DNA of 32,000 bases from Propionibacteriaceae bacterium (GTDB taxonomy: Bacteria > Actinomycetota > Actinomycetes > Propionibacteriales > Propionibacteriaceae), in assembly GCA_031256725.1 (NCBI GenBank), contig JAIRQE010000006.1, forward strand, positions 90,001-122,000, written 5' to 3'. The notes under the pieces were generated by a model. The model was not told where the DNA came from. It saw nothing but the letters and a program-made list of their open reading frames with translations, and ran no database searches. Made by a program: the position numbers and the translations under genes. Shown in pieces: positions 5,290 through 21,068 of the stretch. Positions within the stretch are counted from its first letter, which is position 1, and the number at the start of each line of letters is the position of its first letter.

Positions 5290-5420
5290 GTTTTCCTCTC
5301 CGAAGGAATGGTATCTCAAGTTGATGGGAGGGGTTCGCGAGTGTTCAAACTGTGGGTTTTCTGACCTGCTGGTTCTGGGTGAGTTCATGAATCGGTACGG
5401 TGATCGGTATCCTTGTCCCT

Positions 5421-8400
5421 ATGCCCTCTCGCTTGTCTCTTCGCTCAGTTCTCGGTTCGCGTACCCTGATTGCCGATGGAGGCATGGGTACAATGCTCCA
5501 GCGTTATGACTTGTCACTCGAGGATTTTTCAGGGTACGAGGGTTGCAACGAGATGCTGAGCCTGACCCATCCTGAGATTGTGGGAGCGATCCACAGGGAG
5601 TATTTCGAAGCCGGGTCAGACCTTGTTACTACGAATACCTTTGGCGCGAATCTATCCGCTTTGAGGGAGTACGACCTTGAGAACCGTATCGAAGAATTAG
5701 CTCAGGCCGGTGCTCGGATTGCACGGGAGATCGCTGATGAACTCAGTACACCCCAGCGGCCTCGGTGGGTTTTGGGATCCATGGGGCCTGGTACGAAGCT
5801 GGCGAGCCTTGGGCAGATCACCTATCGAGAGTTGCGGGACAGTTACGCCCTTCAGGCGGCAGGGATGGTACGTGGGGGAGTCGATGCCGTCCTGGTTGAG
5901 ACCAGCCAGGATATTCTCTGTGTACGAGCAGCTGTCGCTGGTGCCAAACGCGCTATTGCCGAGGCGGGTGTGGATTGTCCTGTCCTCGTTTCGGTGACCA
6001 TGGAAACCACAGGAACCATGTTGGTGGGATCGGATATTTCTGCGGTGGTTGCCAGTGTCGCATCCTTGGGGATCGATGGTCTTGGTTTGAATTGTGCGAC
6101 TGGCCCCGAGGACATGCGTAACTACCTGCGTCAGTTGGCTGACTTGAGTCCCGTCCCTCTCACATGTATGCCCAATGCTGGGATGCCAGTCTTGAGTGAT
6201 GATGGTGCCTATTATCCGCTGGGTGCTGAAGAATTCGCTGGGATCATGAGGTCCTTTGTGGACACCTATGGGTTGGCCCTCGTGGGTGGCTGCTGTGGTA
6301 CGACACCCGATCACATACGCGCTGTAGCTGGCGCGTTGCGTGAGAATAGTCTGGATGCTGCGACTAACGCGCAGCATGACGGGGCACAGTTGCAGCATGA
6401 CGGGGGTTCGTCTCTCCGCCCAGAGGGTTCGTCATTCTGCGCACTGCAACTTCGCGCAGCACAAGCTTTGTCGCAGAATCCAGACACCGACTCCCACTCA
6501 TCTGGCTGGGTCTCATCCCTGTACTCTGCAACGTCCATTGCTCAAGAGATCTCCTACCTCTCCATTGGTGAACGTACAAACGCTTCAGGTTCCAAGGCGT
6601 TCCGTGAAGCCCTCCTTGCCGCAGACTGGGATAAGTGCGTGGATATCGCCAGAGGCCAAGCAGCCGAGGGGGCCCATGTACTTGATCTCTGCGTTGACTA
6701 TGTGGGACGCGATGGTCGTACAGATATGGCTGAACTTGCTTCACGGATCTCGCGGGAAGTCGATATCCCCCTCCAGATCGATTCCTCCGATCCTGAAGTC
6801 ATCCGCATAGGTCTGGAGAACACCCCAGGCCGAGCAATCGTGAACTCGGTAAACCTGGAATCAGGTACAGGCCCCGGGTCAAAGTTCACGGCAACTATGG
6901 ATGCAGTACGAGAACACGGAGCCGCAGTCGTTGCATTGTGCATCGATGAGGAGGGGCAGGCTCGTACTGCTGAAGGAAAGCTGGCCATCGCAAGACGAAT
7001 AATTTCCATCCTGACAAGCGACTATGGGATGGATGAGCGCGACATCATCATTGACCCTCTTACCTTCCCGGTGGCGACCGGCCAAGATGATGCACGACGG
7101 GATGCCCTCAACACGATGGAAGCCCTCGCCCTGATCAAAGCTGAATTCCCTCAGGTACACACAGGACTCGGGGTTTCCAATGTCTCCTTCGGCCTCAAAC
7201 CGGCTGCCCGGGTTGTTCTCAACTCGATCTTTTTGAATGAATGCCGCACACATGGACTGGATACTGGGATCGTACCTCCGGCCCGAATCCTGCCGCTGTC
7301 GCAGATCCCGGAAGACCAAGCTCAGGCAGCACTTGATGTGATTCTCGACAACCGTAGTGACGGTGATCCTGTTGAGAGGTTTGTGTCGATGTTCGAGGGT
7401 GCTGCAGCGAGGGCCCAGGCGGTGATCGAGAAATCACTACCCATCGAAGAGCGTCTGCGTCGACACATTGTTGGCGGGGTGGTTGCCGGTTTGGAGACCG
7501 ATCTCACAGTTGCTTTGGAGTCGAAGACTGCTGTACAGATCATCAACGAGGATCTTTTGGGTGCGATGAAAGAGGTGGGGGAGGCCTTCGGTGCTGGCCG
7601 GATGCAGCTTCCCTTTGTACTCAAATCTGCAGAGGTGATGAAGAAGTCGGTGACCTTCTTGGAGCCTTACCTGGATCGTGTGGATGGGGCGACCAAGGGA
7701 ACATTGGTCTTGGCGACTGTACGCGGGGATGTCCACGATATTGGCAAGAATTTGGTGGACATCATCTTGACGAACAACGGTTATCGGGTCGTGAACCTGG
7801 GGATCAAACAACCCATTGCCGACATCATTTCCGCTGCTGAAGAGGTGGGTGCTGATGCCATCGGCATGTCGGGATTATTGGTGAAATCCACCCAGATCAT
7901 GAAAGAGAACCTTGAAGAGTTGAACGAGCTTGGTCTGGGGCTTCGTTATCCTGTACTCCTTGGTGGTGCCGCGCTGACTAGGGCTTATGTTGAGGGCGAC
8001 CTGAACGAGGTCTATACCGGAGAAGTACGCTACGCCCATGATGCCTTCGAGGGTTTGGCCCTCATGGATGCCGTTATGGCGACCAAGGATGGGGCAGGGG
8101 AACTGCCGACCACCCGGGTGCGATCAGTTGCTCCCGCCCAACATTTGGAACCGGTCACAACACGATCGACAATCACGCGTCCCATTCCAGGACAGGTGGA
8201 GGTTTCCGTACTGCCATTCACAGGGGTACGAGAAGGCCGAGCAACCCTGGACGAGGTAGTACCATTTCTCGACAAGCGGGCCCTCTTCGCAGCCCAATGG
8301 GGTTTGAAATCGTCCAAGGATGGCCCTAGTTATGAGGACTTGGTCGCCAGTGAGGGTGAACCACGTTTGGCCTGGTGGATTGATCTACTTGCGGAGGAGT

Positions 8401-8945
8401 CGCTGTTGGATTTCCAGGTTGTATGGGGGTACTGGCCATGTTTCTCGCGTGGTAACGACCTCGTTCTCGTGGATCAGCCCCAGTCTTTCCATTTCCCGCG
8501 CCAGTCTTCGGGAAACCATCTGTGTCTTGCGGATTACTTCCGTGATGAGGCTGAGATGAACCAGTACGGCCCCGATGTTGTTGGATTCCAACTCGTCACC
8601 GTCGGCGAGCAGATCAGCCAGCGTACGGCAGAACTCTTCAAGGCTGATGCCTATCGTGATTATTACGAACTCCATGGGTTATCTGTACAACTTACTGAAG
8701 CTTTCGCTGAGTTCTGGCATACAACAGTGAGGGATGAATTGGGGATTAGTGCATCGTCTGGTGAACGGTACTCCTTTGGTTACCCATCCTGCCCAGACCT
8801 CTCCCAACGCCAAGGGATCATTGAGCTACTCAAGCCGGAAACCATTGGAGTGACTCTTTCTGAGGAGTACCAACTCCATCCAGAACAATCCACAGACGCG
8901 ATGATCCTTCATCATCCCGAAGCCCACTATTTCTCCGTGAGGTGA
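5421..8945 (+). CDS. metH: cobalamin-dependent methionine synthase
   Basis: Four modules are recognisable. The Hcy-binding module has GGCCGTTPDHI. The pterin-binding module has GERTNASGSKAFRE. The B12-binding module has DVHDIGKN and SGLL. A C-terminal AdoMet reactivation domain follows. Start is either ATG 5421 or GTG 5400. Confidence 0.92.
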   Translation: MPSRLSLRSVLGSRTLIADGGMGTMLQRYDLSLEDFSGYEGCNEMLSLTHPEIVGAIHREYFEAGSDLVTTNTFGANLSALREYDLENRIEELAQAGARIAREIADELSTPQRPRWVLGSMGPGTKLASLGQITYRELRDSYALQAAGMVRGGVDAVLVETSQDILCVRAAVAGAKRAIAEAGVDCPVLVSVTMETTGTMLVGSDISAVVASVASLGIDGLGLNCATGPEDMRNYLRQLADLSPVPLTCMPNAGMPVLSDDGAYYPLGAEEFAGIMRSFVDTYGLALVGGCCGTTPDHIRAVAGALRENSLDAATNAQHDGAQLQHDGGSSLRPEGSSFCALQLRAAQALSQNPDTDSHSSGWVSSLYSATSIAQEISYLSIGERTNASGSKAFREALLAADWDKCVDIARGQAAEGAHVLDLCVDYVGRDGRTDMAELASRISREVDIPLQIDSSDPEVIRIGLENTPGRAIVNSVNLESGTGPGSKFTATMDAVREHGAAVVALCIDEEGQARTAEGKLAIARRIISILTSDYGMDERDIIIDPLTFPVATGQDDARRDALNTMEALALIKAEFPQVHTGLGVSNVSFGLKPAARVVLNSIFLNECRTHGLDTGIVPPARILPLSQIPEDQAQAALDVILDNRSDGDPVERFVSMFEGAAARAQAVIEKSLPIEERLRRHIVGGVVAGLETDLTVALESKTAVQIINEDLLGAMKEVGEAFGAGRMQLPFVLKSAEVMKKSVTFLEPYLDRVDGATKGTLVLATVRGDVHDIGKNLVDIILTNNGYRVVNLGIKQPIADIISAAEEVGADAIGMSGLLVKSTQIMKENLEELNELGLGLRYPVLLGGAALTRAYVEGDLNEVYTGEVRYAHDAFEGLALMDAVMATKDGAGELPTTRVRSVAPAQHLEPVTTRSTITRPIPGQVEVSVLPFTGVREGRATLDEVVPFLDKRALFAAQWGLKSSKDGPSYEDLVASEGEPRLAWWIDLLAEESLLDFQVVWGYWPCFSRGNDLVLVDQPQSFHFPRQSSGNHLCLADYFRDEAEMNQYGPDVVGFQLVTVGEQISQRTAELFKADAYRDYYELHGLSVQLTEAFAEFWHTTVRDELGISASSGERYSFGYPSCPDLSQRQGIIELLKPETIGVTLSEEYQLHPEQSTDAMILHHPEAHYFSVR

Positions 8946-9874
8946 CCATGACAGATCTGATACTCCCTCTATCCGGCGTGCGGCGAGGCCCCCTTGTGGC
9001 AGGTGAACGAGTAAGCATCACCAACCCGAAGGGCCGCCGCTATTCTGTACTCCTCAAAGAGGGTGGGCAATTCCACTCAACCAAGGGGATCATCAACCAT
9101 GACGATCTCATCGGCAAGACTGAGGGGATCGTCGTCAACTCTACGGGCGGGGTGCCCCATATTGTGATGCGCCCAATCCTGGAAGAGTTCACGGTCTCTA
9201 TGCCGCGAGGGGCGACTGTCATCTATCCTAAGGATGCCTCCTATATCTTGATGTACACCGACATCTTTCCTGGGGCGCGTGTCTTGGAAGCCGGAGCTGG
9301 ATCTGGTGGGCTCTCGATTTCTCTTCTGCGTGGAATAGGGCCAGAAGGCAAGCTATACTCCTATGAACGCCGAGAGGATTTTGCAGAGACGGCAAGGAAA
9401 AACGTCGAGCAGTTCTATGGCGGTCCTCATCCAGCGTGGACCCTCCAGGTTGGGGATCTTGTTGAATCCTATGCAGGCGAAAAGGTGGATCGGGTTATCT
9501 TGGACATGCTCGCTCCCTGGGAGTGTATTGACACTGTTCATACGGCCCTTGAACCTGGTGGATGGCTCTGCTGTTATGTGGCCACGACGACTCAGATGGG
9601 TCGTACCATGGACACTATCCGTACCCATGGTGGCTGGGTTGAACCCCGCTCTATTGAAGTGAACCTACGAGAGTGGCATGCTGAAGGTTTGGCCATCCGA
9701 CCTGGCCACGCTGGCCGGGGGCACACGGGTTTCATTATCCACGCTCGTCGATTGGCGGATGGGGTACAGGCCCCCATCAAGCGTAGGCGTCCCGCTCCTG
9801 GAGCATATGGTTCGGATTATTCTGGCCCGCGTCCCCCCGGAGTGGAGGAGTACGATTCATACTCAGCGCAGTAG
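8942..9874 (+). CDS. trmI: tRNA (adenine58-N1)-methyltransferase
   Basis: SAM-binding EAGAGSGGLS followed by LYSYERREDFAETARKN, resembling the mycobacterial Rv2118c-type TrmI. The GTG at 8942 overlaps the metH stop (GTGA); ATG 8948 is an alternative start. Confidence 0.85.
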   Translation: MTMTDLILPLSGVRRGPLVAGERVSITNPKGRRYSVLLKEGGQFHSTKGIINHDDLIGKTEGIVVNSTGGVPHIVMRPILEEFTVSMPRGATVIYPKDASYILMYTDIFPGARVLEAGAGSGGLSISLLRGIGPEGKLYSYERREDFAETARKNVEQFYGGPHPAWTLQVGDLVESYAGEKVDRVILDMLAPWECIDTVHTALEPGGWLCCYVATTTQMGRTMDTIRTHGGWVEPRSIEVNLREWHAEGLAIRPGHAGRGHTGFIIHARRLADGVQAPIKRRRPAPGAYGSDYSGPRPPGVEEYDSYSAQ

Positions 9875-9893
9875 GGACCGATATACTGCACCT

Positions 9894-11258
9894 ATGAATC
9901 CAGTCTTTTTCGTGGCACTTGTTGCTGGAAAACTGTGTGCGCTTCTCATACGGATTCTTGCGCCGCGCAGGGGTACGAACATTCCAGGACTCATTGCTGT
10001 AAAAATCGATAAGAAGTTCCTTACCAGGGTTCAGGGTATTGATCCGGCGAAGACTATTTTCATTACGGGGACCAACGGAAAATCAACATCGACCAACTTG
10101 GTTGTACACACTCTTAAAAGCGCAGGGCTGTCTGTTTGTTCAAACCTTGAAGGTGCCAATATGCAGCCGGGGGTGGCGACTGCTCTGCTTGGTGCCACAA
10201 CTCTTGGTGGCAGATTCACGAAAGACTATCTTGTTCTTGAAATTGATGAACGTAGTCTTGGGCTGGTCTGCGCTGATCTCAAGCCTGGTCATCTGTGTGT
10301 GATGAATATCCAAAAGGATCAGGTTCAGCGTAATGGGGAACCCGACTATATCTTCCAGAAGATTAGGACTGTGGTTTCATCACTGTCGAATCTTAGTATT
10401 TATCTAAATAATGATGAGCCTCGCTCTTTGGCTCTCGCGGACTCGTGGAGGGAAGGGTTGAAGGTCGTCACCTTCTCGGTGGCCAAGAATTCTCGAAGTT
10501 CAGTCATGGAGGCAGACTGGGGTGTGACCATGCCATGTCCTCGATGTCATGATGCACTTGAGTTCTCCCATATGACTATTGCGGGAATGGGATCATTCCA
10601 CTGCGTTTCATGCGGATTCCGGTCGGGGTCTGCCGCCACGGTCATTGACAGTGTTGACTATGCCACAAGCACTTTCACTTCCGAATCTGTGAGCTATCAT
10701 CTAGCCTATCAAGCGGCTTTCTTTGTTTACAGTTGTTCCCTATGTCTGTGTCTTGCTGCGGAGCTTGGTGTTGATACTGACAAAGTCGTGAAAGCCCTAG
10801 AATCCTTTGAGAATATCGGCGGCAGAATGGAGTCATTTACCTATTCTGGCAAGGAGATATTCTATGTACGCATCAAGCAGGAGAACCCAGAGACCCTCCA
10901 AAGTGCGTTTGATACGATGGCAGAGGATTCACACACCAAGGTTGTCTCACTGGGGCCAGATATTGTCAGCGACTTTGTTCCCCATTACTCCAATACTTTC
11001 TATACCTTCGACTGCAACCTTGAACCACTGATTTCTTCTGGAGTTGAGAGATGGGTTTGTTTCGGTGGAGTCACTGCGTGGGACACCGCCAATAGACTGA
11101 GGTACGCGGGTGTACCCGACGACAGGATCGTCATCGTCGACTCGGATGATACCCAACAGATTCTTGATGCCCTTGTCGCCTGCAAGACGGATAAGGTCCA
11201 TCTGATCACATGGATGAAAATGTACACCGATCTCAAGGAGAGAGCCCATGAGCGTTGA
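9894..11258 (+). CDS. MurT-like Mur-ligase family protein, non-canonical (lacks the ADGRD segment)
   Basis: Mur-ligase P-loop ITGTNGKST, EIDERS, KDQVQRNGE, and a Cys4 ribbon CPRC...CVSC. The C-terminal domain is DUF1727-like (IKQENPET ... GVTAWDTANRLRYAGV). ATG 9894 lies 19 nt after the trmI stop; the tracked ORF start at 9678 is an overlap artefact. Confidence 0.8.
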   Translation: MNPVFFVALVAGKLCALLIRILAPRRGTNIPGLIAVKIDKKFLTRVQGIDPAKTIFITGTNGKSTSTNLVVHTLKSAGLSVCSNLEGANMQPGVATALLGATTLGGRFTKDYLVLEIDERSLGLVCADLKPGHLCVMNIQKDQVQRNGEPDYIFQKIRTVVSSLSNLSIYLNNDEPRSLALADSWREGLKVVTFSVAKNSRSSVMEADWGVTMPCPRCHDALEFSHMTIAGMGSFHCVSCGFRSGSAATVIDSVDYATSTFTSESVSYHLAYQAAFFVYSCSLCLCLAAELGVDTDKVVKALESFENIGGRMESFTYSGKEIFYVRIKQENPETLQSAFDTMAEDSHTKVVSLGPDIVSDFVPHYSNTFYTFDCNLEPLISSGVERWVCFGGVTAWDTANRLRYAGVPDDRIVIVDSDDTQQILDALVACKTDKVHLITWMKMYTDLKERAHER

Positions 11259-12009
11259 TGCGAAGGTGAATCTTCTGTGGCTATGGCCAGACATCCTCAA
11301 TCTTCACGGTGATCGAGGCAATGCCATGGCTTTTCAGCGCATAGGCCATCTGTGTGGGGTTGAGGTTGAGGTGACGAGAGTCACTCAACTCTCACAGGGT
11401 TTTGATCTTGAAAAGGCCGATATTGTTCTGCTTGGTTCAGGAGAGATAGTCGTACTACTAAGAATCATTGAGGCCCTTTCTGGGAATCCCCAGTTGGGGT
11501 CGTGGATTGATGATGGGGGAGTTCTCTTTGCCGTAGGGACTACTGGGTCGGCCTTGGGTCGGGTTATCCATCGTCGTGATGGCAAGATCGCGGGTCTTGG
11601 ATTGCTTGATATGGAATCCCATGAGAGGAAAATGATCCTGGGAGATGATCTCATCTATAAGACCCAGGATATGACCATCTATGGAAGCCAGGTGCATATG
11701 ATGGATGTACATTTGGGTCCTTCCCAATCCTCTTTTGGTTCCGTGACCTATGGGTACGGCAACAATGGGGGTTCTGACGAGGGGGCTGTGCGTCAGAATC
11801 TGGTGTACACCAATGCTTTGGGGCCTGTACTTGTGAAGAATCCTTGGCTCGTGGTTGATCTGATTAACCGTGCGTTGGTTCGTCGCGGGATTGCGGAGGA
11901 AGATCGACTGGTATGCGATCCAGCATTGTTCCGCTTTGAACTGGCATCCGCAGAGGCCATCCAACGGTTTAATGACTCGAAGGAGAAGCCACAATGGGCG
12001 CGCGGCTGA
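11248..12009 (+). CDS. GatD-like (CobQ-type glutamine amidotransferase-like) protein without a nucleophile cysteine
   Basis: Collinear by eye with recalled S. aureus GatD (LNLHGDRGN, GLGLLD, VTYGYGNN, GPVLVKNP). The nucleophile elbow reads FAVGTTGSALG, with Val at 11533-11535. The gene overlaps the MurT-like gene by 11 nt. Confidence 0.75.
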   Translation: MSVDAKVNLLWLWPDILNLHGDRGNAMAFQRIGHLCGVEVEVTRVTQLSQGFDLEKADIVLLGSGEIVVLLRIIEALSGNPQLGSWIDDGGVLFAVGTTGSALGRVIHRRDGKIAGLGLLDMESHERKMILGDDLIYKTQDMTIYGSQVHMMDVHLGPSQSSFGSVTYGYGNNGGSDEGAVRQNLVYTNALGPVLVKNPWLVVDLINRALVRRGIAEEDRLVCDPALFRFELASAEAIQRFNDSKEKPQWARG

Positions 12010-13067
12010 CCATTAACACGGAAGCGATCCTTCATAATCTGAGGATCATTCAGCGCCTCGTAGATAGCCATGGTGTGACTATCAGTGTTGTGACCAAAGC
12101 TCTCCTTGGTCATGAGGAACTTATGAAGATGTGGGTGGAAGCTGGTGTCGCCAGTATCTGTGAATCCCGTCTGCCAATCCTGGAGAAGTGGTCAGGAATT
12201 GATGTCGAGAAGTGGTTGATTCGTTCTCCTGTACCCGGTGAAGCAGATCAGGCTGTACGGTGTGCGGACATCACTTTAGTGAGCGAGGGGGAGATACTGG
12301 AGAGTCTCTCTCAAGCAGCAGTGGCTATGGGGTGTATCCATAAAGTCGTGATCATGGTCGAACTGGGGGAGTTGCGTGAAGGCTGTATGCCCGAGGAACT
12401 TCTGGACCTGTGCGAGTTGGCGGTTGGTTTGCCTGGACTTGATCTCCATGGAATTGGTACAAACCTCTCCGACTTTAACGAGGTGGTACCCAATGATGAC
12501 AATAGGGCGGCTCTGATCGCTGCGGCTGATCATGTCGAGAGGACACTGGGTGTGACCCTTGAGGTTATTTCTGGCGGGAATTCCTCATCTTTGGTATCAC
12601 TGATCCAGGGGAAGCATCCGTCACGGATCAACCATCTGCGTATAGGTGAGGCCATACTTCTGGGTACCCTTGCGTGCTTTGTTGACCCTTTTGAAGGGGC
12701 ACGTTTGGATGCCTTTACCGTGGATGCGCCCATCTTTGAGGTCAAGGACAAGCCTTCCATGCCCTGGGGTGAGCGTTCTCCGCGGGGGGTACCCATTGTG
12801 GATGACCCAACATTGGTGGATCGTGGTGTCCGACGTCGAGCACTGGTTGCACTTGGAAAACAGGACATGAGGGCAGAGTACCTTGTTCCCTGTGACCCGA
12901 GTCTCATCATCTATGGTGACACGAGCGACTGTCTCATTGTGGACGTCACAGACTCTAAACGCGACTATCATCTTGGCGACATCGTCCGATTCCGACCAAA
13001 GTACCAAGCTCTGGTGAGTGCGATGAATTCCCCCTATGTCGACAAGATTGTCCTGCGTGGGGATTAA
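11994..13067 (+). CDS. alanine/ornithine/lysine racemase family PLP-dependent enzyme
   Basis: PLP-lysine context SVVTKALLG, plus CESRL, GGNSSS and RIGEAILLG, typical of the ornithine-racemase/YhfX-like fold-type III subgroup. The gene overlaps the GatD-like gene by 16 nt. Confidence 0.8.
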   Translation: MGARLTINTEAILHNLRIIQRLVDSHGVTISVVTKALLGHEELMKMWVEAGVASICESRLPILEKWSGIDVEKWLIRSPVPGEADQAVRCADITLVSEGEILESLSQAAVAMGCIHKVVIMVELGELREGCMPEELLDLCELAVGLPGLDLHGIGTNLSDFNEVVPNDDNRAALIAAADHVERTLGVTLEVISGGNSSSLVSLIQGKHPSRINHLRIGEAILLGTLACFVDPFEGARLDAFTVDAPIFEVKDKPSMPWGERSPRGVPIVDDPTLVDRGVRRRALVALGKQDMRAEYLVPCDPSLIIYGDTSDCLIVDVTDSKRDYHLGDIVRFRPKYQALVSAMNSPYVDKIVLRGD

Positions 13068-13292
13068 TCAGTTCAAAGAATCGGAATCAAAGTAGCCATA
13101 ATACGCTGTGAAGACACGCTTGCACCGACTTAAAACATCGCTCATAACCAGGATCGACGCGCGTGCAGTTTCCTTGTCCATAGAGTACGGATGTACCACC
13201 ATGGCATTGTTGGGTTTGACGCGGAAAGCGTCCTCAGAGAATAGGTCGGTTCCGTCAACTAAATATGCAGTGTGACCGAGAGTGAAAACGAG

Positions 13293-13688
13293 TTATAGGC
13301 AATCTCTATCTGGGGCTGTGTTATATGGGCAGCGATATATATTAATATCCTCGCCACCTACTTCAACAGGCTCAACAACACCAGGCTTCCTTCCCCAACT
13401 GCAGCTTTCTCCATATCTCTCAACAATTTCATCAAACTTTTCCTGGGTGTTATCGAGGTAATACCATTCCTCACCATTCGGTCCCTGGAAATAGCCAGAA
13501 TTCCCAGGTTCTACATGTTCGCCTACCATGCTGCCTGGGTACTCCCACCAGACTTCTGAGTAGCAGTAATCTGCTGGATCCAGTTTATTGGATGTGGATA
13601 ACATGGCATCTCCTCCGCATCCAGAAAGAACAAAAGCGCCAGTCAGAATGCCGATTTTTAAAATGGGCCTAATTATATTGAGTTTCAC
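13293..13688 (-). CDS. small secreted lipoprotein, function unknown
   Basis: Signal peptide with lipobox (ILTGAFVLSGC). GTG start at 13688 lies 8 nt downstream of a (GA)10 tract. The local sequence is visibly AT-richer than its flanks. Confidence 0.65.
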   Translation of the reverse strand: MKLNIIRPILKIGILTGAFVLSGCGGDAMLSTSNKLDPADYCYSEVWWEYPGSMVGEHVEPGNSGYFQGPNGEEWYYLDNTQEKFDEIVERYGESCSWGRKPGVVEPVEVGGEDINIYRCPYNTAPDRDCL

Positions 13689-13696
13689 GCACCAAT

Positions 13697-13716
13697 TCTC
13701 TCTCTCTCTCTCTCTC
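13697..13716. repeat. (TC)10 dinucleotide microsatellite in a divergent intergenic region
   Basis: Ten uninterrupted TC units are read directly from the sequence. They lie between the lipoprotein start (13688, minus) and the PadR promoter/start (plus). Confidence 0.95.
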
Positions 13717-13720
13717 CCTC

Positions 13721-13748
13721 TTGCAAATTGTCAAGATGCATCTATATT
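13721..13748 (+). promoter_or_regulatory. candidate sigma-70-type promoter for the PadR operon
   Basis: TTGCAA (13721-13726), a 16-nt spacer, then TATATT (13743-13748). Sequence match only. Confidence 0.3.
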
Positions 13749-13763
13749 GACAGTCTATCTAGT

Positions 13764-14141
13764 ATGTGTCACGATATAGGTGTGGAAAGTGTTGAAAGAC
13801 CTGCTGAGTGGCTGCGAGGTCTGCTGGATCTGTGTGTTTTGGCTGTGATCGAGCAGGGGCCTACTTATGGGTACAAGATTTCGACAGCGCTGACTACGGC
13901 TGGTCTGGGGGAGATCAAGGGAGGTACCTTGTACCCCTTGCTGTCTCGGGCAGAGCGCGATGGTCTAGTTGACACCCATTGGGAAGCAGGCGATGGGGGG
14001 CCTGGGCGGAAGTTCTACACATTGACCTCTCAAGGCCAGCAAAGGCTAGCCGAACTTCGTACTGCATGGGAGAACTTTCGGGAGGATGTCAACAGGGTTG
14101 TTGAGGGACACCCAAGAATCGAGATTGAGGAGGAATCGTGA
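13764..14141 (+). CDS. PadR family transcriptional regulator
   Basis: Winged-helix PadR signature: LRGLLDLCVLAVIEQGPTYGYKI ... GTLYPLLSRAERDGLV ... RKFYTLTSQG. The start is uncertain (ATG 13764, GTG 13782 or TTG 13728). Confidence 0.85.
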   Translation: MCHDIGVESVERPAEWLRGLLDLCVLAVIEQGPTYGYKISTALTTAGLGEIKGGTLYPLLSRAERDGLVDTHWEAGDGGPGRKFYTLTSQGQQRLAELRTAWENFREDVNRVVEGHPRIEIEEES

Positions 14142-14216
14142 GTGCGTCAATTATGGAGAGTACCCGAAAGTACCATGCTCCTAAGCCGGGAAGCTTGGAG
14201 GCACTAGGAGGCCAGA

Positions 14217-15002
14217 ATGTACCCAGCAAGTAAGTACCCCCACAAGGTACCTAATCCGCGAAGTGTTGAGGGACACCTAGCGCCGCAGGTTGACGCAAAC
14301 TGGAGTCAGCCCTTCATTAAGGAGATGCGGTTCCTGGAGGTACCTGGCCCAGAAATTGGAGCCGCCCTCGCGGATGTCAACACTCATGTGAGTGAATTGG
14401 GTGAGGACGCGTGGAGATCCTTTGGTGAGCCCATTGCTTATGCAGCGAGTCTCAACCTGCCCAGACGAGAACCACGCAAGGTCTATTGGGAACCGGCCTG
14501 CATAGTATTTCAGGCAACAGCGATGTGGATCCTTTGTGAAGCCTTCTGGAGGATGCTTCGTTCCTTTTCGGACTTTTACATCCAGCCGCCTTTGGTTTTC
14601 TTGGTCCTCTGCCTGATGGTTCTCATGAGTACTGGTGATCGAGTTATGAGGTGGATTGTTCACAATTCTGCTTGCCTTCAAACAGCTTTGCTCGCTTCTG
14701 CAGGAATTGTCGGAGCGATGTTTTTTATTCTGTGGATTACTGGTGGTGCTGGCTGGGGAGAACTACCCTTAGTGTGGGCATGGGTGGTTTCAGGTGTTTT
14801 CATGGTCACTGGAACACTACCGTTGGTCATATCTGGACGGTGGGGAAGGATCGCCCGAAATCCCATTCCTGTACCAGATCACCCCAATCCTCCGCGCCAA
14901 CTGAGAGGCTTAATTGATTGGGATAACGTCTTCTGGTTTCCTGTTGGCGCCGTTGTTGTGCCCGTAATCTACTACGGCATCAATTTTGTTTTCTCCGGTT
15001 GA
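14217..15002 (+). CDS. PadR-associated integral membrane protein
   Basis: AGGAGG ribosome-binding site before the ATG. The N-terminal soluble helix region (FIKEMRFLEVPGPEIGAALADVNTHVSELGEDAWRSFGEP) is typical of membrane partners encoded after PadR genes. Several hydrophobic spans follow. Confidence 0.65.
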   Translation: MYPASKYPHKVPNPRSVEGHLAPQVDANWSQPFIKEMRFLEVPGPEIGAALADVNTHVSELGEDAWRSFGEPIAYAASLNLPRREPRKVYWEPACIVFQATAMWILCEAFWRMLRSFSDFYIQPPLVFLVLCLMVLMSTGDRVMRWIVHNSACLQTALLASAGIVGAMFFILWITGGAGWGELPLVWAWVVSGVFMVTGTLPLVISGRWGRIARNPIPVPDHPNPPRQLRGLIDWDNVFWFPVGAVVVPVIYYGINFVFSG

Positions 15003-15039
15003 AAAGGGTTCAACATTGTAATCTGCGAGATGAGTGTTC

Positions 15040-15975
15040 TCACTGGTTGAGGAGGATCTTTGGGGCACGACTTCTGACCATGATGGAGGCGATGACAAGG
15101 TAGGCCACCATACAGATCAGGAGTCCACTGCAGTCTATGAGGGCGGTCTCGAAGGTGGGTTCCCAGGTGAATCCGTGCTCGTCGTAGGGGTTTAGGCTTT
15201 CAAGGTCGATCTGGGCGGCCCAGGCTCCACCGGCCCATCGTGCGGGGATGACTAGGGAGATGAGTTTCAGAACATCGCCAGCCCATCCTTCAAGATTGTC
15301 TAAGGGGATGGGAATTTCGGAGAGCACGACGAACATAGCCAAGGTAGCCATGAGTACCAAAACGGTCGACTTTGTCCCTCTGACAACGCTGGATACTGCC
15401 AAACCCATGGCGGTACAACACCAGGAGTAGAGGACCAACATGATGGCGAGGAAGGCGAAATTATTCTCGTGAACCATCGTTGTGTCGGTCTCGACGAGAA
15501 GGCAGAAGAACCATGCGGTTAGGACACCTAGGACGATTGTGGGGGGAACAGATCCAAGGAATTTCGAGAGGATATGTTGCCACCCGCGTACTCCCCATGA
15601 GGATTCCCGGGCTAGTACCTTCCATTCATCGCTAACACCAGCAGTTGTGAGGCCTATGGAACCAAAGCCAACCACGGTCAAGACAACGAGTAGGGCAGAA
15701 ACCGAGGAAACCGACTCGACTCCGAGGTTGTTTCCCTTGAGAACCGACTTTCCTACGACGGCCGCCATCAGAGGAAACAAGACGATGATCCACACCGCTT
15801 TGAGTCGCCCCAAGGCCCATTTTCGGATGAAGTTGAGTACCTTGGATTCCCCAGGCTTGTAGGGGACCCAGGCGCTGAAGGGGCGTCCCAGTTCACGGGA
15901 GACCAGGGTACGTAGGCGACCAGAATGTCGAGGACTATAGGATTTGAGAAGCTGATCAAGTGTCTTCTTTGCCAT
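15040..15975 (-). CDS. ABC-2 type transporter permease
   Basis: Multiple hydrophobic spans. ATG 15975 lies 1 nt after the ATPase stop (TGAGATG). It is the last gene of the five-gene operon. Confidence 0.7.
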   Translation of the reverse strand: MAKKTLDQLLKSYSPRHSGRLRTLVSRELGRPFSAWVPYKPGESKVLNFIRKWALGRLKAVWIIVLFPLMAAVVGKSVLKGNNLGVESVSSVSALLVVLTVVGFGSIGLTTAGVSDEWKVLARESSWGVRGWQHILSKFLGSVPPTIVLGVLTAWFFCLLVETDTTMVHENNFAFLAIMLVLYSWCCTAMGLAVSSVVRGTKSTVLVLMATLAMFVVLSEIPIPLDNLEGWAGDVLKLISLVIPARWAGGAWAAQIDLESLNPYDEHGFTWEPTFETALIDCSGLLICMVAYLVIASIMVRSRAPKILLNQ

Positions 15976-15976
15976 C

Positions 15977-17455
15977 TCACCACCGCCCGTTCTCAAGGTT
16001 TTCCATGAGCTGTGCATCGTCACCAGGGGCAGCATTGCAGGCAAGGTACATGTCGGCCTTGCGTCCTTCGTAGGCGACTTCGCTGAGGAACTGGTTCCGG
16101 ATTCCCAAAAGGATCACATAGGCATCGTCAGGCAGATGTACCAGGGTGTGGGTCACCATGATGACGATCTTTGTACTCGACTCTGAGGCAACGAGTTCAA
16201 GGGATCTCATGAGTGCCCGATCGCTAGCGGGGTCGAGTCCAGAATTGGGTTCGTCAAGAAGCAGGATCGTCGGAATACTCATCAGTTCCATAGCCAGGGA
16301 GATCCTCTTGAGTTGCCCACCTGAGAAACTACTCATGTAGTCGTTGTGGCGTTTCATGAACACATCAATCAGTCCAGTATTATTCAGAGCCTTCTTCATG
16401 GTCTCGTGGATCTCATGGGAGCCACCAGGGGTACGTTTCAGCCAATAAGCATCAGAAAGCATTCGCCCCAAAGACACATCTGGCGCCAAAACAGTTTCCT
16501 GGGGTACAAGTGCCGCCACATGTTGTCGTTTCCTGCCACGAGTATGGAGGGGTTCCTCGCCCAACAGCATGGTTGGGTTTCCACGGGTGCGTGTACCTGC
16601 AGAAATTAGAGCACGAAGCAGGGTCGTCTTTCCTGTACCACTGGGGCCACATAATGCCACGACAGAGTTCATTGGAACGCTGAAGGTCAATTCCAGTCGT
16701 TTCTGTGGTCTGGATTTATGTCCGATGGGAAGGATCAGATTGTTGACAGTGAGGGCGTGAAGCCGGTCAGGGCGTTTGGGATCTGTACTGGGAATATCGC
16801 AAGGGCTAGCCTCAAGAAACTCGAACCCAAACCAGCTAAAACGGGTACCTGCGATCTCGAACCATTCGCCAGGGGAGAGTTCAACCGAATCGTGGACTCC
16901 AGCCCCATTGCTGAGGAATACTCCCCGGTCAGCTCCCTTGTGGCGAATGATGGTCAAGGATTCTGCTTGGGCATTCCATCGCAGGGTTGCAGCACGACTT
17001 GGCAGGCCCGGTGTAGTGACCACGAGGTCGCAGGATTCTGCACTGCCCAAGGTGAGGAACTCGCCTGGCCTCAAAGTGAGAGATGAGTCTGCTCGTTCAG
17101 GCCGTTTGAGTCTGGGGCGAGGAATCCTGAAAGGAACCGGTGCCAGGGAAACCTGAATAAAACCGTCTTTCTGGACGGTGAACCTCACCTTATCGATCTC
17201 GAACCACTCAAATTCGCTGACCCTGATGGAGTCATGAGCTCCGTTCACGTCAGTCAGCTGTGTTCGGCGACCATGTTTGACCACAGTCAGTCGCTCGCGC
17301 TCCTCATCCCATTGGAGACTTGCCGCATGGGCGGGAAAACCAGGGCGACGTACCAGTATTTGACAGGCAGAGTCAGAGCCGAGAAGGATCCACTGTCCGG
17401 CAGGGATCTGATGGATTTCCTGATGAGTACTCTCAGTCACGGGTCCCCCCATCAT
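15977..17455 (-). CDS. ABC transporter ATP-binding protein with two N-terminal FHA-like modules
   Basis: The ABC cassette has Walker A GPSGTGKT, Q-loop LVPQET, signature FSGGQ, Walker B ILLLDEP and H-loop VTHT. Two N-terminal repeats (about residues 15-100 and 125-210) show an FHA pattern: LLGS..C.ILV..PG..AHA ... NG ... F.I. Architecture resembles M. tuberculosis Rv1747, but with the permease encoded separately. Confidence 0.8.
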   Translation of the reverse strand: MMGGPVTESTHQEIHQIPAGQWILLGSDSACQILVRRPGFPAHAASLQWDEERERLTVVKHGRRTQLTDVNGAHDSIRVSEFEWFEIDKVRFTVQKDGFIQVSLAPVPFRIPRPRLKRPERADSSLTLRPGEFLTLGSAESCDLVVTTPGLPSRAATLRWNAQAESLTIIRHKGADRGVFLSNGAGVHDSVELSPGEWFEIAGTRFSWFGFEFLEASPCDIPSTDPKRPDRLHALTVNNLILPIGHKSRPQKRLELTFSVPMNSVVALCGPSGTGKTTLLRALISAGTRTRGNPTMLLGEEPLHTRGRKRQHVAALVPQETVLAPDVSLGRMLSDAYWLKRTPGGSHEIHETMKKALNNTGLIDVFMKRHNDYMSSFSGGQLKRISLAMELMSIPTILLLDEPNSGLDPASDRALMRSLELVASESSTKIVIMVTHTLVHLPDDAYVILLGIRNQFLSEVAYEGRKADMYLACNAAPGDDAQLMENLENGRW

Positions 17456-18422
17456 CTGGATCGGCTATTTTCACAGGCGTACCAGTATTCAGGGAGTAAA
17501 GATCGCCATTGCGTGCTTCAAGTCCAGTCCATTGTTGGGCGATATTGACCATACCTGCTATTCCCCGTCCGTGCCCAGAGGCGAGTACGATAATTCGTTC
17601 GATGTGATCTGGAGGTAGTACCTCCCCAGCAGCCTGTGTGAACTCGTCGACATTGGTCACCATGAGGCTCTCTGTGAGTGAGTAAATAATGAGTCGTCCC
17701 AGAAGCTCACTGTCGCCATCACGGGTACCAGCGACAGTTGTGATCTCTTCCCCAGGTGGTACATTCGCGAAACCGGCTGCGCCTTTGAAGCGGAAGGAAT
17801 CCGTGTCGAGCATGAAGACCCGTCGTAACCCTGGAACATGGTGTACATCTGGTGGTGCTGTGAGGAGATTCGGTGCACGCAGATCTCCGATCGTCACCCC
17901 CCGAAGATGGAGGTCGTGAACAAGGAGCAAGACCTCGCCCAGACGTGCAATCTTCTGGTATTTCGGATAGTACGAAGGGTTGTGATGTCTTCCAGCGAAA
18001 ACCCTGCCCTGAGTGACCCGTGAAAACGATGGCCATCCTTGGGTTGTGTCGCCCCAGTCGCCAGCAGACTCATGCCATCGTAGGAGGATTCCGATTCGCT
18101 TGCCTTTGTCTTCGATGATGGCTAGAGGCCAGGAACACGAATTGAGGAGGAGGGCATCTTTCGTATGAGTGGAATCTACCAGGGGCGAGACCACATCGTT
18201 CATGAGAGTTTCAAGATTGCTCCAGTCTATACAGTCACCAGTTCCAGGGCCCTTATGACCAGGCAAGCATTGGGGTTTGAGTATCTTAGCTACGTAGAGG
18301 TTCCTAGACTCATCTCGGCATCGTGTCACTGAGGCAGCGTTGGCAGTCGCCGATGATTCACCCATGAGGCTGGTTGTGTCCATCTCCAAGCATCTGAGAT
18401 CTACCGTGGGGGTTTGTACCAT
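17433..18422 (-). CDS. atypical protein-kinase-like protein
   Basis: Three kinase-like motifs: YVAKILK (beta3 Lys), VHDLHLRGVTIGDLRAPNLL (catalytic loop D-L-R-x-P-N in place of HRDLKPxN), and FMLDTDSF (DFG-equivalent). No obvious Gly-rich loop. An AAGGGGGG ribosome-binding site precedes ATG 18422. Confidence 0.6.
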   Translation of the reverse strand: MVQTPTVDLRCLEMDTTSLMGESSATANAASVTRCRDESRNLYVAKILKPQCLPGHKGPGTGDCIDWSNLETLMNDVVSPLVDSTHTKDALLLNSCSWPLAIIEDKGKRIGILLRWHESAGDWGDTTQGWPSFSRVTQGRVFAGRHHNPSYYPKYQKIARLGEVLLLVHDLHLRGVTIGDLRAPNLLTAPPDVHHVPGLRRVFMLDTDSFRFKGAAGFANVPPGEEITTVAGTRDGDSELLGRLIIYSLTESLMVTNVDEFTQAAGEVLPPDHIERIIVLASGHGRGIAGMVNIAQQWTGLEARNGDLYSLNTGTPVKIADPDDGGTRD

Positions 18423-18432
18423 CAAGCCCCCC

Positions 18433-19311
18433 TTATCTCATCACCAGTGCAGCGACGGATGCATCATCACCAGTTTGGGCGGCACAGTCTTCAACGAGAC
18501 GCAGAAGGTACTTCTTGAGCAGACTTCCATCAGCAATATCGGGTGTCCGGGTAGCTGCAAGGTGTTTCTCGTTGACATGGAGGATTCGCGCTGCTCCATC
18601 TGTACATGCGAAGCAAACCTGACCACTCGCGAGTTTAATGATGCCGTACTCGGCGTGGCTGTGGACACCGGGTAGAGCATTTGTGAAGGAACTTGATCGA
18701 CCCTCGTAGGTGGCATCGTGCCTCGTGAGCCACTGTATCCCCTCAGCGCTGATCAGACCAAAAGCTGAATCCCCTACGGTAAGCCAGTAGCAGGAAACCC
18801 CTCGAAGGGTTGGGATGAAGACACCGAAAACGAGAGTACTTGCTGGATAAAGATCCTCGCCTGTGATCTTTCGAGCGGTGTGGGCGTGGGCCCTCATAGC
18901 ATGATCAACTTTGGCAAGGATCGTGTGTACCATCACAGACCATGCGAGGGTGTTCCAGATGTTGAATCCACTCGAATCAGCCCAGGATTTCACCTGGGTC
19001 CAGGCGGTACGAATAGCGATGTCGGCACTTTCTCGTACAAGTTGCCTGGATTTTTTGCTGGTGTGTGAGGTACCACTCACGCCGTCAGCTACTGCGATGA
19101 AACCCAGATTCTCGGCAACACCAATAAATGCAGAGTCCTGCAAGGGCCACGGTGGTTCCGCGAAGAAATGGTTGCTGCCTATACATGATGCATGGGCTCC
19201 AAAAAAGGTTTCTGTGTTGTAGTGTCCCGATTCCATGGGTTTGTCTGCAAGGAGAAACTTAGACTCGCGGCGTTGTGCTGCCCGAAGATGATAAGGAATA
19301 ACGCTGCTCAT
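18433..19311 (-). CDS. PP2C-family Ser/Thr protein phosphatase
   Basis: PP2C motif series: LQDSAF, IAVADGVSG, VGDSAFGLIS, ACTDGAARIL, GDDASVAALV. The ATG lies 3 nt after the vWA stop. Confidence 0.8.
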   Translation of the reverse strand: MSSVIPYHLRAAQRRESKFLLADKPMESGHYNTETFFGAHASCIGSNHFFAEPPWPLQDSAFIGVAENLGFIAVADGVSGTSHTSKKSRQLVRESADIAIRTAWTQVKSWADSSGFNIWNTLAWSVMVHTILAKVDHAMRAHAHTARKITGEDLYPASTLVFGVFIPTLRGVSCYWLTVGDSAFGLISAEGIQWLTRHDATYEGRSSSFTNALPGVHSHAEYGIIKLASGQVCFACTDGAARILHVNEKHLAATRTPDIADGSLLKKYLLRLVEDCAAQTGDDASVAALVMR

Positions 19312-19314
19312 CGT

Positions 19315-20106
19315 CTAGTATCCCTTGGCTGGAACATAGTCAAAACCAGGCAGTCCTCCAGGGGTGGTGAACTTCTTTCCTCGAGAGGACAGAGCCACGG
19401 AATTGATAATGAACTCGAAGACATGACCGATGACTCCGTGACTCCCATCGACACCAATGGATTGAACGAAACCTGTACCACCGTGGCTGCGTGTTGCTAT
19501 GCGGGCGATGGTGTGGGTCTTCGCATGGCCGAAACCTAAGGCTGCGATCCCGGGGGAATAGGCGGGCTTGGATAGCTGATCATAGGAGGATCTCCATCCC
19601 CGATCCTTGGGTTTACCATCGGTGATGAAGAAGACCGCAGGCCGGCTCCTATCGCTGTAGTGGTTGCTGAGGTACTGGTCATCCTGGTTGAGCACCTCCA
19701 AGAGATATTGGAAAGCTGTGCCATAGTGTGTTGAGGATTGTTTTTCGTGTGCCTTTTGGAGGGACTTCCCAATGTCGAAATGACTGAGTCGATGGATTGC
19801 TGTTAACGGAAGGATGGTCTCAACTTGGTCACCAAATGCCACGATCGAGAACAGGCCCCTCTCATAGATCTGGTGGTAGTCCTCATGGGAGAAAGCCAGA
19901 GACTGAGCAGCAGTAGTACCGCTGTAGGCACCCTCGCGAAGGAGGACCATGAGTGCCGCAGTCCACTCTTTAATGTCATCTAAAGCGGAGAAGGTCTCAC
20001 CTTTGACCGTGATCTCATCATTCATTGATGGGGAGACATCAATGACAAGATAAAAAGGAAAGGCACTGCCAAACCCTGTCATTCGTTCATAGGCAAACTC
20101 ACGCAC
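19315..20106 (-). CDS. TerY-like von Willebrand factor A (vWA) domain protein
   Basis: MIDAS motif DxSxS in FPFYLVIDVSPSM, plus FFITDGKPKD. The overall N-terminus is TerY-like. GTG 20106 lies 9 nt after GGAGG; TTG 20112 and a downstream ATG are alternative starts. Confidence 0.75.
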   Translation of the reverse strand: MREFAYERMTGFGSAFPFYLVIDVSPSMNDEITVKGETFSALDDIKEWTAALMVLLREGAYSGTTAAQSLAFSHEDYHQIYERGLFSIVAFGDQVETILPLTAIHRLSHFDIGKSLQKAHEKQSSTHYGTAFQYLLEVLNQDDQYLSNHYSDRSRPAVFFITDGKPKDRGWRSSYDQLSKPAYSPGIAALGFGHAKTHTIARIATRSHGGTGFVQSIGVDGSHGVIGHVFEFIINSVALSSRGKKFTTPGGLPGFDYVPAKGY

Positions 20107-20246
20107 TGACAACCCCCTCCTTGGCGTGTCGCGAAAAAGTACACACCATTGTTGTTAACTATTCAGCGTTGATAGTCTATACCGAGTTTTATCCTGACAA
20201 CGCCAATATTGAAAGTTCGCAGCAGGGACAGAGTAAACTAGAGCGG

Positions 20247-21068
20247 ATGAATACCGACGAGATATCCAGGGTCCTTCTGGCTGACCCGACGAGTTCTTTT
20301 ACCCAGTTTCTGGGGCGTACCTCTCCCGAATTCCTGCCGGTACAAACGCTGGGACGCTCAGGAGGTGACCTCTCTCCAACAGCGACGACAATTGTTGCTG
20401 TGGCGACCGAGGAGGGGGTGATCCTGGCAGGGGATCGCAGGGCAACAGTGGGTTCAATGATCGCTCAGCGGGATATTCAAAAGGTCTACCCAGCTGACGA
20501 GTACTCAGCAATCGGCATAGCGGGCTCTGCAGGGTTATCCATCGATCTGGTGAAGCTCTTTCGGGTCGAATTGGAGCACTACGAGAAGATTGAGGGTACA
20601 CCCCTGACCCTCGACGGTAAGGCGAACCGATTGGCCTCCATGATTCGAGGAAATCTGGGGATGGCACTCCAAGGGTTTGTGGTGGTTCCCCTATTTGTCG
20701 GATGGGATAGGGTCCGTAACAGGGCGCGAATTTTCTCCTATGACCCCACAGGTGGTTGCTATGAAGAGAACGGTTATTACGCAGTAGGTTCCGGTTCGGT
20801 GTTTGCCAAGGGCTCTCTGAAGAAACTGTATTCCTCGAAAGCGAGCCTGGAACAGGCAGTGATCATGTGTATCCAAGCACTCTTTGATGCTGCTGATGAT
20901 GATGCAGCAACAGGGGGGCCAGATGTACTGAGGCGAATCTTCCCCGTTGTGGTCTCGGTTACCGCCCAGGGGGCGACCCAGATTCCTGAATCTCAGATTG
21001 CTGAGATCACAGACACAGTGTTGGCTGGGCGTATGACTCGCCCCGATGGACCGGAGGCCCAACTATGA
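20247..21068 (+). CDS. prcB: 20S proteasome beta subunit
   Basis: The propeptide contains SSFTQFLGRTSPEFLP (compare recalled M. tuberculosis SSFTDFLRRQAPELLP). This is followed by the mature N-terminus TTIVAV..GVILAGDRRAT...QK, giving Thr1/Asp17/Lys33. The tracked ORF starts at TTG 20121; ATG 20247 fits homologues better. Confidence 0.88.
   Translation: MNTDEISRVLLADPTSSFTQFLGRTSPEFLPVQTLGRSGGDLSPTATTIVAVATEEGVILAGDRRATVGSMIAQRDIQKVYPADEYSAIGIAGSAGLSIDLVKLFRVELEHYEKIEGTPLTLDGKANRLASMIRGNLGMALQGFVVVPLFVGWDRVRNRARIFSYDPTGGCYEENGYYAVGSGSVFAKGSLKKLYSSKASLEQAVIMCIQALFDAADDDAATGGPDVLRRIFPVVVSVTAQGATQIPESQIAEITDTVLAGRMTRPDGPEAQL

Follow-up and report, generated by a model that had tools for sequence, protein, structure and literature searches.

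We examined a 32,000-nucleotide stretch of a Propionibacteriaceae genome (assembly GCA_031256725.1, contig JAIRQE010000006.1, positions 90,001 to 122,000; hereafter the window, in whose numbering coordinates are given unless a different locus is named). Our subject is a three-gene module at positions 9894-13067 that encodes a MurT-like ligase, a GatD-like protein and a racemase-like enzyme. The genes of the window carry LBG99_ locus tags, and their order in this region is metH (5400-8945), trmI (8942-9874) and then the module:

9894..11258, plus strand: gene 1, MurT-like Mur-family ligase of 454 amino acids (Pfam, PDB, Foldseek)
11248..12009, plus strand: gene 2, GatD-like pseudo-glutaminase of 253 amino acids (PDB, AlphaFold2/Foldseek, hhalign)
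11994..13067, plus strand: gene 3, ornithine-racemase-like fold-type III pyridoxal phosphate (PLP) enzyme of 357 amino acids (Pfam, NCBIfam)

The gene layout described in the original prediction was reproduced from the sequence: three coupled open reading frames (ORFs), the first of which begins with an ATG at 9894 after a 19-nucleotide spacer from the trmI stop at 9874, with overlaps of 11 nucleotides between genes 1 and 2 (11248-11258) and 16 nucleotides between genes 2 and 3 (11994-12009). An AAGGAG ribosome-binding site precedes gene 2, and another precedes gene 3. The module was also said to be slightly richer in AT than its surroundings, and its GC content is indeed modestly lower (0.507 versus 0.531 in the remaining window). 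Sites found in a promoter and terminator scan of positions 8800-13800 were no more numerous than in shuffled sequence.

The MurT-like ligase and its GatD-like partner

Gene 1 matched MurT by several measures. Its product was recognized by the Pfam models MurT_C (E value 6e-13, above the cut-off) and Mur_ligase_M (8e-8), and it matched Staphylococcus aureus MurT in the PDB (7q8e) with an E value of 6e-37. The NCBIfam MurT model gave it 167 bits, under the equivalog cut-off of 800. An AlphaFold2 model of the protein (predicted local distance difference test, pLDDT, 87) returned MurT, without exception, as its 13 best Foldseek matches in the PDB. The next-best matches after MurT were pMurC in NCBIfam and, by both sequence and fold, PDB entry 6vr7. 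The MurT ligase motifs and MurT-type C-terminus that had been read from the sequence earlier were both located. We counted conservation over 120 homologues aligned with S. aureus MurT, which gave the following features:

10068..10088, plus strand: P-loop GTNGKST, ATP binding; Lys63 corresponds to MurT Lys59; kept in 119/120 homologues
10152..10160, plus strand: G87-A88-N89 acceptor-carboxylate motif, corresponding to MurT Gly83-Ala84-Asn85; kept in 118-119/120 homologues
10239..10253, plus strand: E116-I-D118-E119-R120, Mg2+ ligands (MurT Glu108/110, Asp112-Glu113); 120/120 homologues
10536..10613, plus strand: Cys4 zinc ribbon C215, C218, C237, C240 (CPRC..CVSC); all four invariant
10992..10994, plus strand: Asn367 in place of the triad Asp (S. 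aureus D349), in the motif D360-x-x-P-x-Y-x-N-T-F-Y-x-F-D; Asn in 120/120 homologues

The cysteines of the zinc ribbon align with C202, C205, C224 and C226 of the S. aureus protein. A KDQVQR motif is present, and further invariant ligase positions of the family are N138, the G310-R311 hinge and the K328..N331-P332 loop. In canonical MurT the Asn of the Gly-Ala-Asn motif binds the acceptor carboxylate and several ligase residues are essential by mutagenesis; in Streptococcus pneumoniae, the MurT mutants K59A and N85A are inactive. Judged by its ATP, Mg2+ and acceptor-carboxylate motifs and its Cys4 ribbon, the ligase chemistry of gene 1 is retained. Moreover, the contact pair that joins MurT to GatD is kept (an aromatic residue at the MurT 372 position and Gly24 in the GatD-like protein), and the two products are therefore expected to form a complex.

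Gene 2 matched GatD alone, with an E value of 1.5e-16 to GatD in the PDB and 70 bits in NCBIfam, under the cut-off of 400. Comparison to the canonical GatD profile by hhalign gave a probability of 100% (E value 2e-47), and the AlphaFold2 model (pLDDT 94.4) superimposed on GatD in Foldseek with TM scores of 0.81-0.84. Its catalytic columns were fixed by three agreeing alignment methods (HMMER, MAFFT and hhalign), and each position central to glutamine hydrolysis that we list below is occupied by a different residue or motif:

11305..11307, plus strand: His20 in place of the Tyr that plugs the ammonia channel (LYGD becomes LHGD); invariant in the family alignment
11434..11445, plus strand: G63-S-G65-E66 in place of the oxyanion-hole GGG(S/Q)D (MAFFT, hhalign); G65 and E66 invariant
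11536..11538, plus strand: Gly97 at the nucleophile elbow in place of the catalytic Cys (S. aureus C94), motif G-T-T-G-S/A; Gly in 120/120 homologues
11818..11820, plus strand: Leu191 in place of the catalytic His (S. aureus H189; TYLHGP becomes TNALGP); Leu in 111/120 homologues

In canonical GatD the GGG motif forms the oxyanion hole and the Tyr plugs the path of ammonia. The column of the glutamine-capturing Arg (S. aureus R128) is variable in this family, and an E126-R127 pair lies two residues upstream of it. The alignments thus show no Cys/His/Asp triad, with Gly97, Leu191 and Asn367 standing in its place. Loss of the GatD cysteine had been claimed in the original prediction, and no Cys occurs at the elbow by any of the three methods, but the residue aligned there is Gly97, not the neighbouring Val96 as had been thought. 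The only two cysteines do lie elsewhere, at C36 and C223, neither in a conserved column. Likewise, the MurT triad Asp is gone, replaced by Asn367 within the segment quoted for it, although that 17-residue segment runs from 10950 to 11000 and not to 11012. The Thr of G-T-T-G was considered as a replacement nucleophile and set aside: Gly97 occupies the apex of the elbow, and neither a His nor any other residue offers itself as a base.

Two of these substitutions have direct counterparts in S. aureus, where GatD C94G shows no glutamine-dependent activity and MurT D349N loses amidation activity. The changes that inactivate the S. aureus complex with glutamine are those seen here, and they predict that glutamine cannot be the nitrogen source. 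The earlier suggestion of a ligase that no longer uses glutamine-derived ammonia is thus supported, since neither the Cys and His nor the oxyanion glycines nor the Asp of MurT have been retained. Together, the residues at these positions indicate that the pair is a MurT/GatD homologue unable to act as a glutamine-dependent amidotransferase.

The pair has the same two-gene order as the MurT/GatD systems of S. aureus, S. pneumoniae, Streptococcus pyogenes and Mycobacterium tuberculosis (PDB 6gs2, 6h5e, 7q8e, 6fqb, 9sq9). It shares with them the P-loop, the Mg ligands, the acceptor Asn, the Cys4 ribbon, MurT_C, the class I amidotransferase fold and the interface pair. It departs from them in the Cys, His, oxyanion glycines, capture Arg, plug Tyr and MurT Asp, all of which are replaced; in a two-residue insertion (Q329-E330) in the K-N-P loop of the MurT-like protein; in its NCBIfam scores (167 versus 800 and 70 versus 400 bits); and in its linkage to a racemase. 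The archaeal 'MurT-like' ligases of pseudomurein producers, to which the next-best matches pMurC and 6vr7 point, are divergent MurT relatives as well, but they have no GatD partner; the present family is found in bacteria, and a GatD-like partner always accompanies it.

When 1.8 billion cluster representatives were searched exhaustively, 1038 relatives were obtained. The Cys-less share was counted on 151 aligned sequences, consisting of the query and the best 150 of these 1038 representatives. The Cys-less type, defined by LHGDRGN ... GT[TS]GA ... TNxLGP, accounted for 87 of the 151 (clusters at 50% identity), and the first sequences with canonical CGG[YF]Q/TYLHGP motifs appeared at rank 83 (E value about 6e-23). 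Mean column identity of the family is 43%, and the replaced glutaminase positions rank among its best-conserved columns. From this pattern of conservation, the substitutions are fixed, not drifting, and are not due to chance.

Other GatD relatives, outside the GT[TS]GA clade, are also without the nucleophile Cys (P0398, P0410, P0413, P0414, P0430, P0438, P0441 and P0447), and the Cys-less variants there include LATGSAVE/TTLIGPI and LAVGAGYQ. The glutaminase therefore seems to have been lost several times.

The racemase-like enzyme, gene neighbourhoods and probable transfer

Gene 3 had been described as ornithine-racemase-like, in agreement with its best NCBIfam match, ornithine racemase Orr (E value 3.5e-95; 319 bits, under the cut-off of 480). 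A human-gut orthologue scored 377 bits against the same model. In Pfam the protein was recognized by Ala_racemase_N (7e-21); its family profile matched alanine racemases, YhfX and D-threonine aldolases in the PDB, where a single-sequence search found no close solved structure. Two positions of its active site are as follows:

12096..12098, plus strand: Lys35, the PLP-binding lysine (SVVTK), equivalent to Lys36 of Salmonella OrnR; invariant in 34 operon-linked orthologues
12471..12473, plus strand: Asp160 (GAC), where OrnR has its catalytic Cys; N-L-S-D in place of N-L-S-C (orthologue alignment)

Like Orr of Acetoanaerobium sticklandii and OrnR of Salmonella, gene 3 encodes a fold-type III PLP enzyme with Lys35, Arg128, Arg216 and Asn157. 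The two arginines of the PLP site are invariant among the 34 operon-linked orthologues, and N157 is the residue that replaces a stacking His. Unlike those enzymes, it belongs to a cell-wall operon and not to an ornithine-fermentation or decarboxylase operon, and its score falls short of the family cut-off (319 versus 480 bits). It also differs from them at the catalytic Cys, which is Asp in the window's gene 3 and Ser in eight orthologues. Ornithine racemase uses Lys36 and Cys164 as its bases (Salmonella numbering); the Cys is reported in all 945 family members, and the Salmonella C164A mutant is inactive. Most operon-linked orthologues retain this Cys (N-L-S-C). The Ser type is found in termite-gut loci and reads H-L-S-S, with Asn changed to His three residues earlier (L009, L011, L014, L015, L018, L023, L024 and L057). 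On these alignments, the Ser and Asp variants may be racemase subtypes that have a different second base or catalyze a different reaction.

To place the module in its genomic context we compared 86 loci, grouped into 45 lineages at 80% identity; the denominators that follow are the assessable lineages. The MurT-like gene adjoins the GatD-like gene in 42/43 lineages. An OrnR-like racemase gene lies directly downstream of the pair in 32/39 lineages (82%), and an Alr-type racemase gene directly upstream in two further lineages. On the question, raised in the original prediction, of whether a Cys-less GatD always sits beside a racemase, most lineages conform and seven have none downstream. Because the racemase is directly downstream in 32 of 39 lineages and travels with the pair in three Propionibacteriaceae genomes, a functional link between the two is supported. 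In 12 of 25 lineages murE is directly upstream, and other cell-wall neighbours across the lineages include a SpoVB/MurJ-like flippase, an Alr/VanT-like racemase, an LdcB-like carboxypeptidase and a FemAB-family gene. These neighbours support a context of peptidoglycan synthesis for the module. No T-box or riboswitch, which would name the amino acid, was found upstream of the operons in 11 loci.

Several loci add detail to this picture. Those with murE upstream are L001, L003, L014, L016, L017, L024-L026, L030 and L032. The module-linked murE genes carry DDPD, DDPE or DDPV in place of the DNPR typical of enzymes for diaminopimelic acid (DAP), and EDPM or ADPE in two loci. Such motifs suggest that position 3 of the stem peptide is occupied by an unusual residue in these termite-gut Clostridia. 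L040 (2877-10067) and related loci, from one common human-gut lineage, have their genes in the order SpoVB/MurJ-like, Alr/VanT-like racemase, MurT-like, GatD-like, YebC and LdcB-like, so that here the pair is adjoined on its upstream side by a racemase of another family. In L063 (3044-7735) a FemAB-family gene and a MurJ/SpoVB-like flippase gene are directly upstream of the pair and the racemase is absent; in this lineage the module may operate alongside tRNA-dependent bridge synthesis. Finally, two loci from Clostridia metagenome-assembled genomes (MAGs), L002 (5041-6756) and L004 (382-1995), have a Cys-less GatD-like gene without an adjacent MurT-like gene. In both it is preceded by a gene for a conserved membrane protein of 259-269 amino acids with no Pfam match, and in L002 it lies beside lexA, a neighbour that it shares with the full operon in related genomes.

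Carriers of the module are mostly Clostridia from the guts of termites and of humans and other animals, namely Family XIII/Mogibacterium, Lachnospiraceae, Oscillospiraceae and 'Eubacteriaceae' MAGs. They are uncultured MAGs together with Mogibacterium kristiansenii, the only cultured carrier among the matches listed. The same three genes occur in three Propionibacteriaceae MAGs, each time at a different chromosomal site: after trmI in the window, after dnaX-recR-DUF1015 in L028 and after tilS-hpt in L089. In a rough neighbour-joining tree the Propionibacteriaceae cassettes fall on at least two branches, the rest of the tree consisting of gut-metagenome sequences and Clostridia MAGs, and in all three genomes the GC content of the cassette is slightly under that of its flanks. 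The module looks horizontally acquired, repeatedly, as a self-contained unit. The original prediction had set it among actinobacterial murein chemotypes, a framing that finds no support, the family being overwhelmingly clostridial and apparently horizontally acquired here. Canonical murT-gatD is reported to be universal in Actinobacteria, and the module is probably a second MurT/GatD system in its Propionibacteriaceae host. A second, xenologous pair beside a universal one suggests an added function, not a replacement.

Elsewhere in the window, the interval between trmI and prcB (9875-20120) contains, after the module, a lipoprotein-like ORF (13293-13688, minus strand), a PadR regulator gene, a gene for a membrane protein, an ABC transporter whose ATPase bears an FHA-like (Yop-YscD_cpl) domain, and PP2C and VWA genes. 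The proteasome genes prcB-prcA follow (20121-21808), with pup, dop and arc not adjacent. Further on, a gene for a beta-eliminating lyase of the tryptophanase/tyrosine phenol-lyase family adjoins one for an amino-acid permease (27602-28981 and 26129-27592, minus strand), neighbours that fit a gut lifestyle of amino-acid fermentation.

Candidate functions of the module

We propose, with belief and doubt in about equal measure, that the module encodes an ATP-dependent ligase that adds a racemase-supplied D-amino acid to the alpha-carboxyl of D-isoglutamate (D-iGlu). The MurT-like subunit would carry out ATP-dependent activation of a stem-peptide carboxylate, as in MurT and other Mur ligases. This step is suggested by the retention of the ligase machinery, by the Asn of the acceptor motif and by the presence of cell-wall genes nearby, and by homology its target would be the alpha-carboxyl of D-iGlu. 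The GatD-like subunit would be a pseudo-glutaminase, having kept its fold and its contact with MurT and lost glutamine hydrolysis, and its remodelled pocket, together with the Asn367-bearing loop of the MurT-like protein, could bind or admit an amine other than glutamine-derived ammonia. Because that interface pocket is both remodelled and fixed, and because the coupling to the racemase persists even through co-transfer, the likeliest nucleophile would be a D-amino acid of the D-Orn or D-Lys type made by the co-translated racemase-like enzyme. Such a reaction would leave an amino acid attached to D-Glu of the stem peptide, in the linkage found in B2-type cross-bridges and alpha-carboxyl substituents. 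Beyond homology and synteny we infer every step of this scheme, including which acceptor and nucleophile are used and what the pocket does.

The chemistry proposed, in which the amino group of a free amino acid attacks an acyl-phosphate, resembles that of the Mur ligases MurC-F, and especially MurE. Unlike MurE, the MurT-like protein has no N-terminal UDP-binding domain, carries a Zn ribbon and has an obligatory GatD-like partner, and its proposed acceptor is the alpha-carboxyl, not the gamma-carboxyl, of D-Glu. Substitution of the D-Glu alpha-carboxyl occurs in nature, on the same carboxyl group that MurT activates: B-type bridges contain D-Orn or D-Lys in Eubacterium limosum/Butyribacterium, and the substituent is glycine in Micrococcus luteus and cadaverine in Selenomonas.

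Several observations weigh against this proposal. One is the distribution of the family. The walls of E. limosum contain Orn, Lys and Ser, and E. limosum and Acetobacterium are absent among the matches listed, some lists resting on shared 5-residue words and so not proving absence. We checked for carriers with B-type walls in the homologue lists, in cluster names and in a further search seeded from an 'Eubacteriaceae' MAG protein; no carrier with a known wall of this kind occurs among the matches listed, and the species description of M. kristiansenii is silent on wall chemistry. The racemase raises further difficulties, being absent downstream in the seven lineages mentioned above, M. kristiansenii included, and having Asp (here) or Ser (eight orthologues) where OrnR requires Cys. 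Moreover, no co-variation was found between the type of racemase (Cys, Ser, Asp, Alr-type or none) and the motifs of the ligase or the pocket. The geometry is also demanding: the GatD and ATP sites of the canonical complex are 20-40 Å apart, so that an amino acid held in the pocket would require the domains to close, or else would have to bind MurT directly. Finally, free NH3 at pH 8.5 still serves for lipid II amidation when S. aureus MurT is paired with GatD-C94G, which makes ammonia itself a plausible nucleophile.

This last result underlies an explanation that we consider unlikely, and the most serious competitor nonetheless: that the pair is an ammonia-dependent lipid II isoglutaminyl synthase. 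It would form D-iso-glutamine from free NH3, which is abundant in gut anaerobes, with the GatD-like protein as a purely structural partner, and the racemase would serve another step, such as supplying D-Orn or D-Lys to a non-DAP MurE or to a bridge-forming enzyme. The NH3-dependent activity of S. aureus MurT is unchanged with GatD-C94G, MurT depends on GatD for stability and activity, and all ligase residues are retained here. The backbone of the elbow is strained (C94 is a Ramachandran outlier), which could alone fix a Gly there; an ammonia-dependent synthase leaves unexplained why Asn367, His20, Glu66, Thr98 and Thr/Ser99 are fixed. The constancy of the pocket motifs across racemase types also suits an ammonia-dependent enzyme, as do the lineages, M. 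kristiansenii among them, without an adjacent racemase and with the pair in a core MurJ-linked position. A further point in its favour is that murE of the DDPD type (versus DNPR) adjoins operons that contain the racemase. However, ammonia-dependent amidation accounts neither for a racemase directly downstream in most lineages nor for the acquisition by Propionibacteriaceae, at least twice, of the pair and racemase without murE. In addition, Actinobacteria reportedly own a canonical murT-gatD, to which an NH3-dependent copy would add little.

A somewhat less probable alternative keeps the ligase and its acceptor and changes the amine: glycine, an L- or D-alanine derivative, or a diamine such as cadaverine or putrescine might be placed on the D-Glu alpha-carboxyl, and the PLP enzyme would not be a simple Orn/Lys racemase in every lineage. 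The chemotypes of Schleifer and Kandler include glycine, glycine amide, D-alanine amide and cadaverine at this carboxyl. In its favour, the PLP enzyme varies at the Cys position, where Ser or Asp may stand instead (the Ser group also having His for Asn), and one human-gut lineage has an Alr/VanT-like instead of an OrnR-like racemase. Conversely, ornithine racemase is the best family for the PLP enzyme (319-377 bits), most orthologues keep the Lys/Arg/Asn/Cys set of OrnR, and neither glycine nor a polyamine would need a racemase.

We regard as improbable a third explanation, in which the ligase acts on a carboxylate outside peptidoglycan, such as that of a small metabolite, a siderophore-like compound or a secondary wall polymer. 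Its logic would be that of staphyloferrin A synthesis, which the S. aureus OrnR homologue serves and in which an ornithine racemase feeds D-Orn to a ligase, and inside the window the neighbours of the module (trmI, PadR and the ABC transporter) are not cell-wall genes. At other loci, however, the neighbours are murE, MurJ/SpoVB-like, FemAB, LdcB and alr genes, the nearest homologues by sequence and fold are specifically MurT and GatD, and the pair retains traits particular to MurT, namely the Zn ribbon, MurT_C and the aromatic-Gly contact at the interface. The idea that these are functionless, decaying remnants of murT-gatD, to which the lost catalytic residues and the atypical Asp of the racemase might point, is effectively refuted by conservation, the ORFs being intact, translationally coupled and provided with good ribosome-binding sites, with many invariant columns over at least 45 lineages and about 87 clusters at 50% identity, and with confident AlphaFold2 models.

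Implications for cell-wall chemistry

Chemotaxonomy has for decades relied on the substituents and cross-bridges that the D-Glu alpha-carboxyl carries, and we found no enzyme assigned to them; to our knowledge none has been assigned to the glycine, glycine amide, D-alanine amide and cadaverine substituents named above. A MurT relative that does not use glutamine and has recruited a racemase is an obvious candidate for this reaction, acting on the carboxyl that MurT activates, although no module carrier is known to have such a wall. In its fullest form, our proposal is that the family is the long-missing enzyme by which the alpha-carboxyl of D-Glu in peptidoglycan receives an amino acid, for instance in B2-like cross-bridges or substituents made of D-Orn or D-Lys. 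A glutaminase subunit would have been turned into a non-catalytic subunit that presents the amino acid, and with its own racemase the pair would form a three-gene cassette that moves between phyla within gut communities and rewrites the wall chemistry of its recipients. We hold this wider claim tentatively, with somewhat more doubt than belief. If it is true, an amidotransferase has become an amino-acid ligase by way of a pseudoenzyme subunit.

As far as the literature searched goes, the family is previously undescribed: neither a bacterial family of Cys-less GatD proteins nor an operon joining MurT/GatD to a racemase is reported there. The labels 'CobQ-like glutamine amidotransferase' and 'MurT ligase domain-containing protein', under which these proteins are currently listed, are wrong in claiming more than can be read from the sequences, even if ammonia were the nucleophile. 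Our results suggest that a cell-wall modification has passed from Clostridia into Actinobacteria on a small cassette. Gut Clostridia of humans and animals commonly carry the family, and changes to D-iGlu or D-isoglutamine could plausibly affect both the sensing of muropeptides by the host and susceptibility to cell-wall-active agents.

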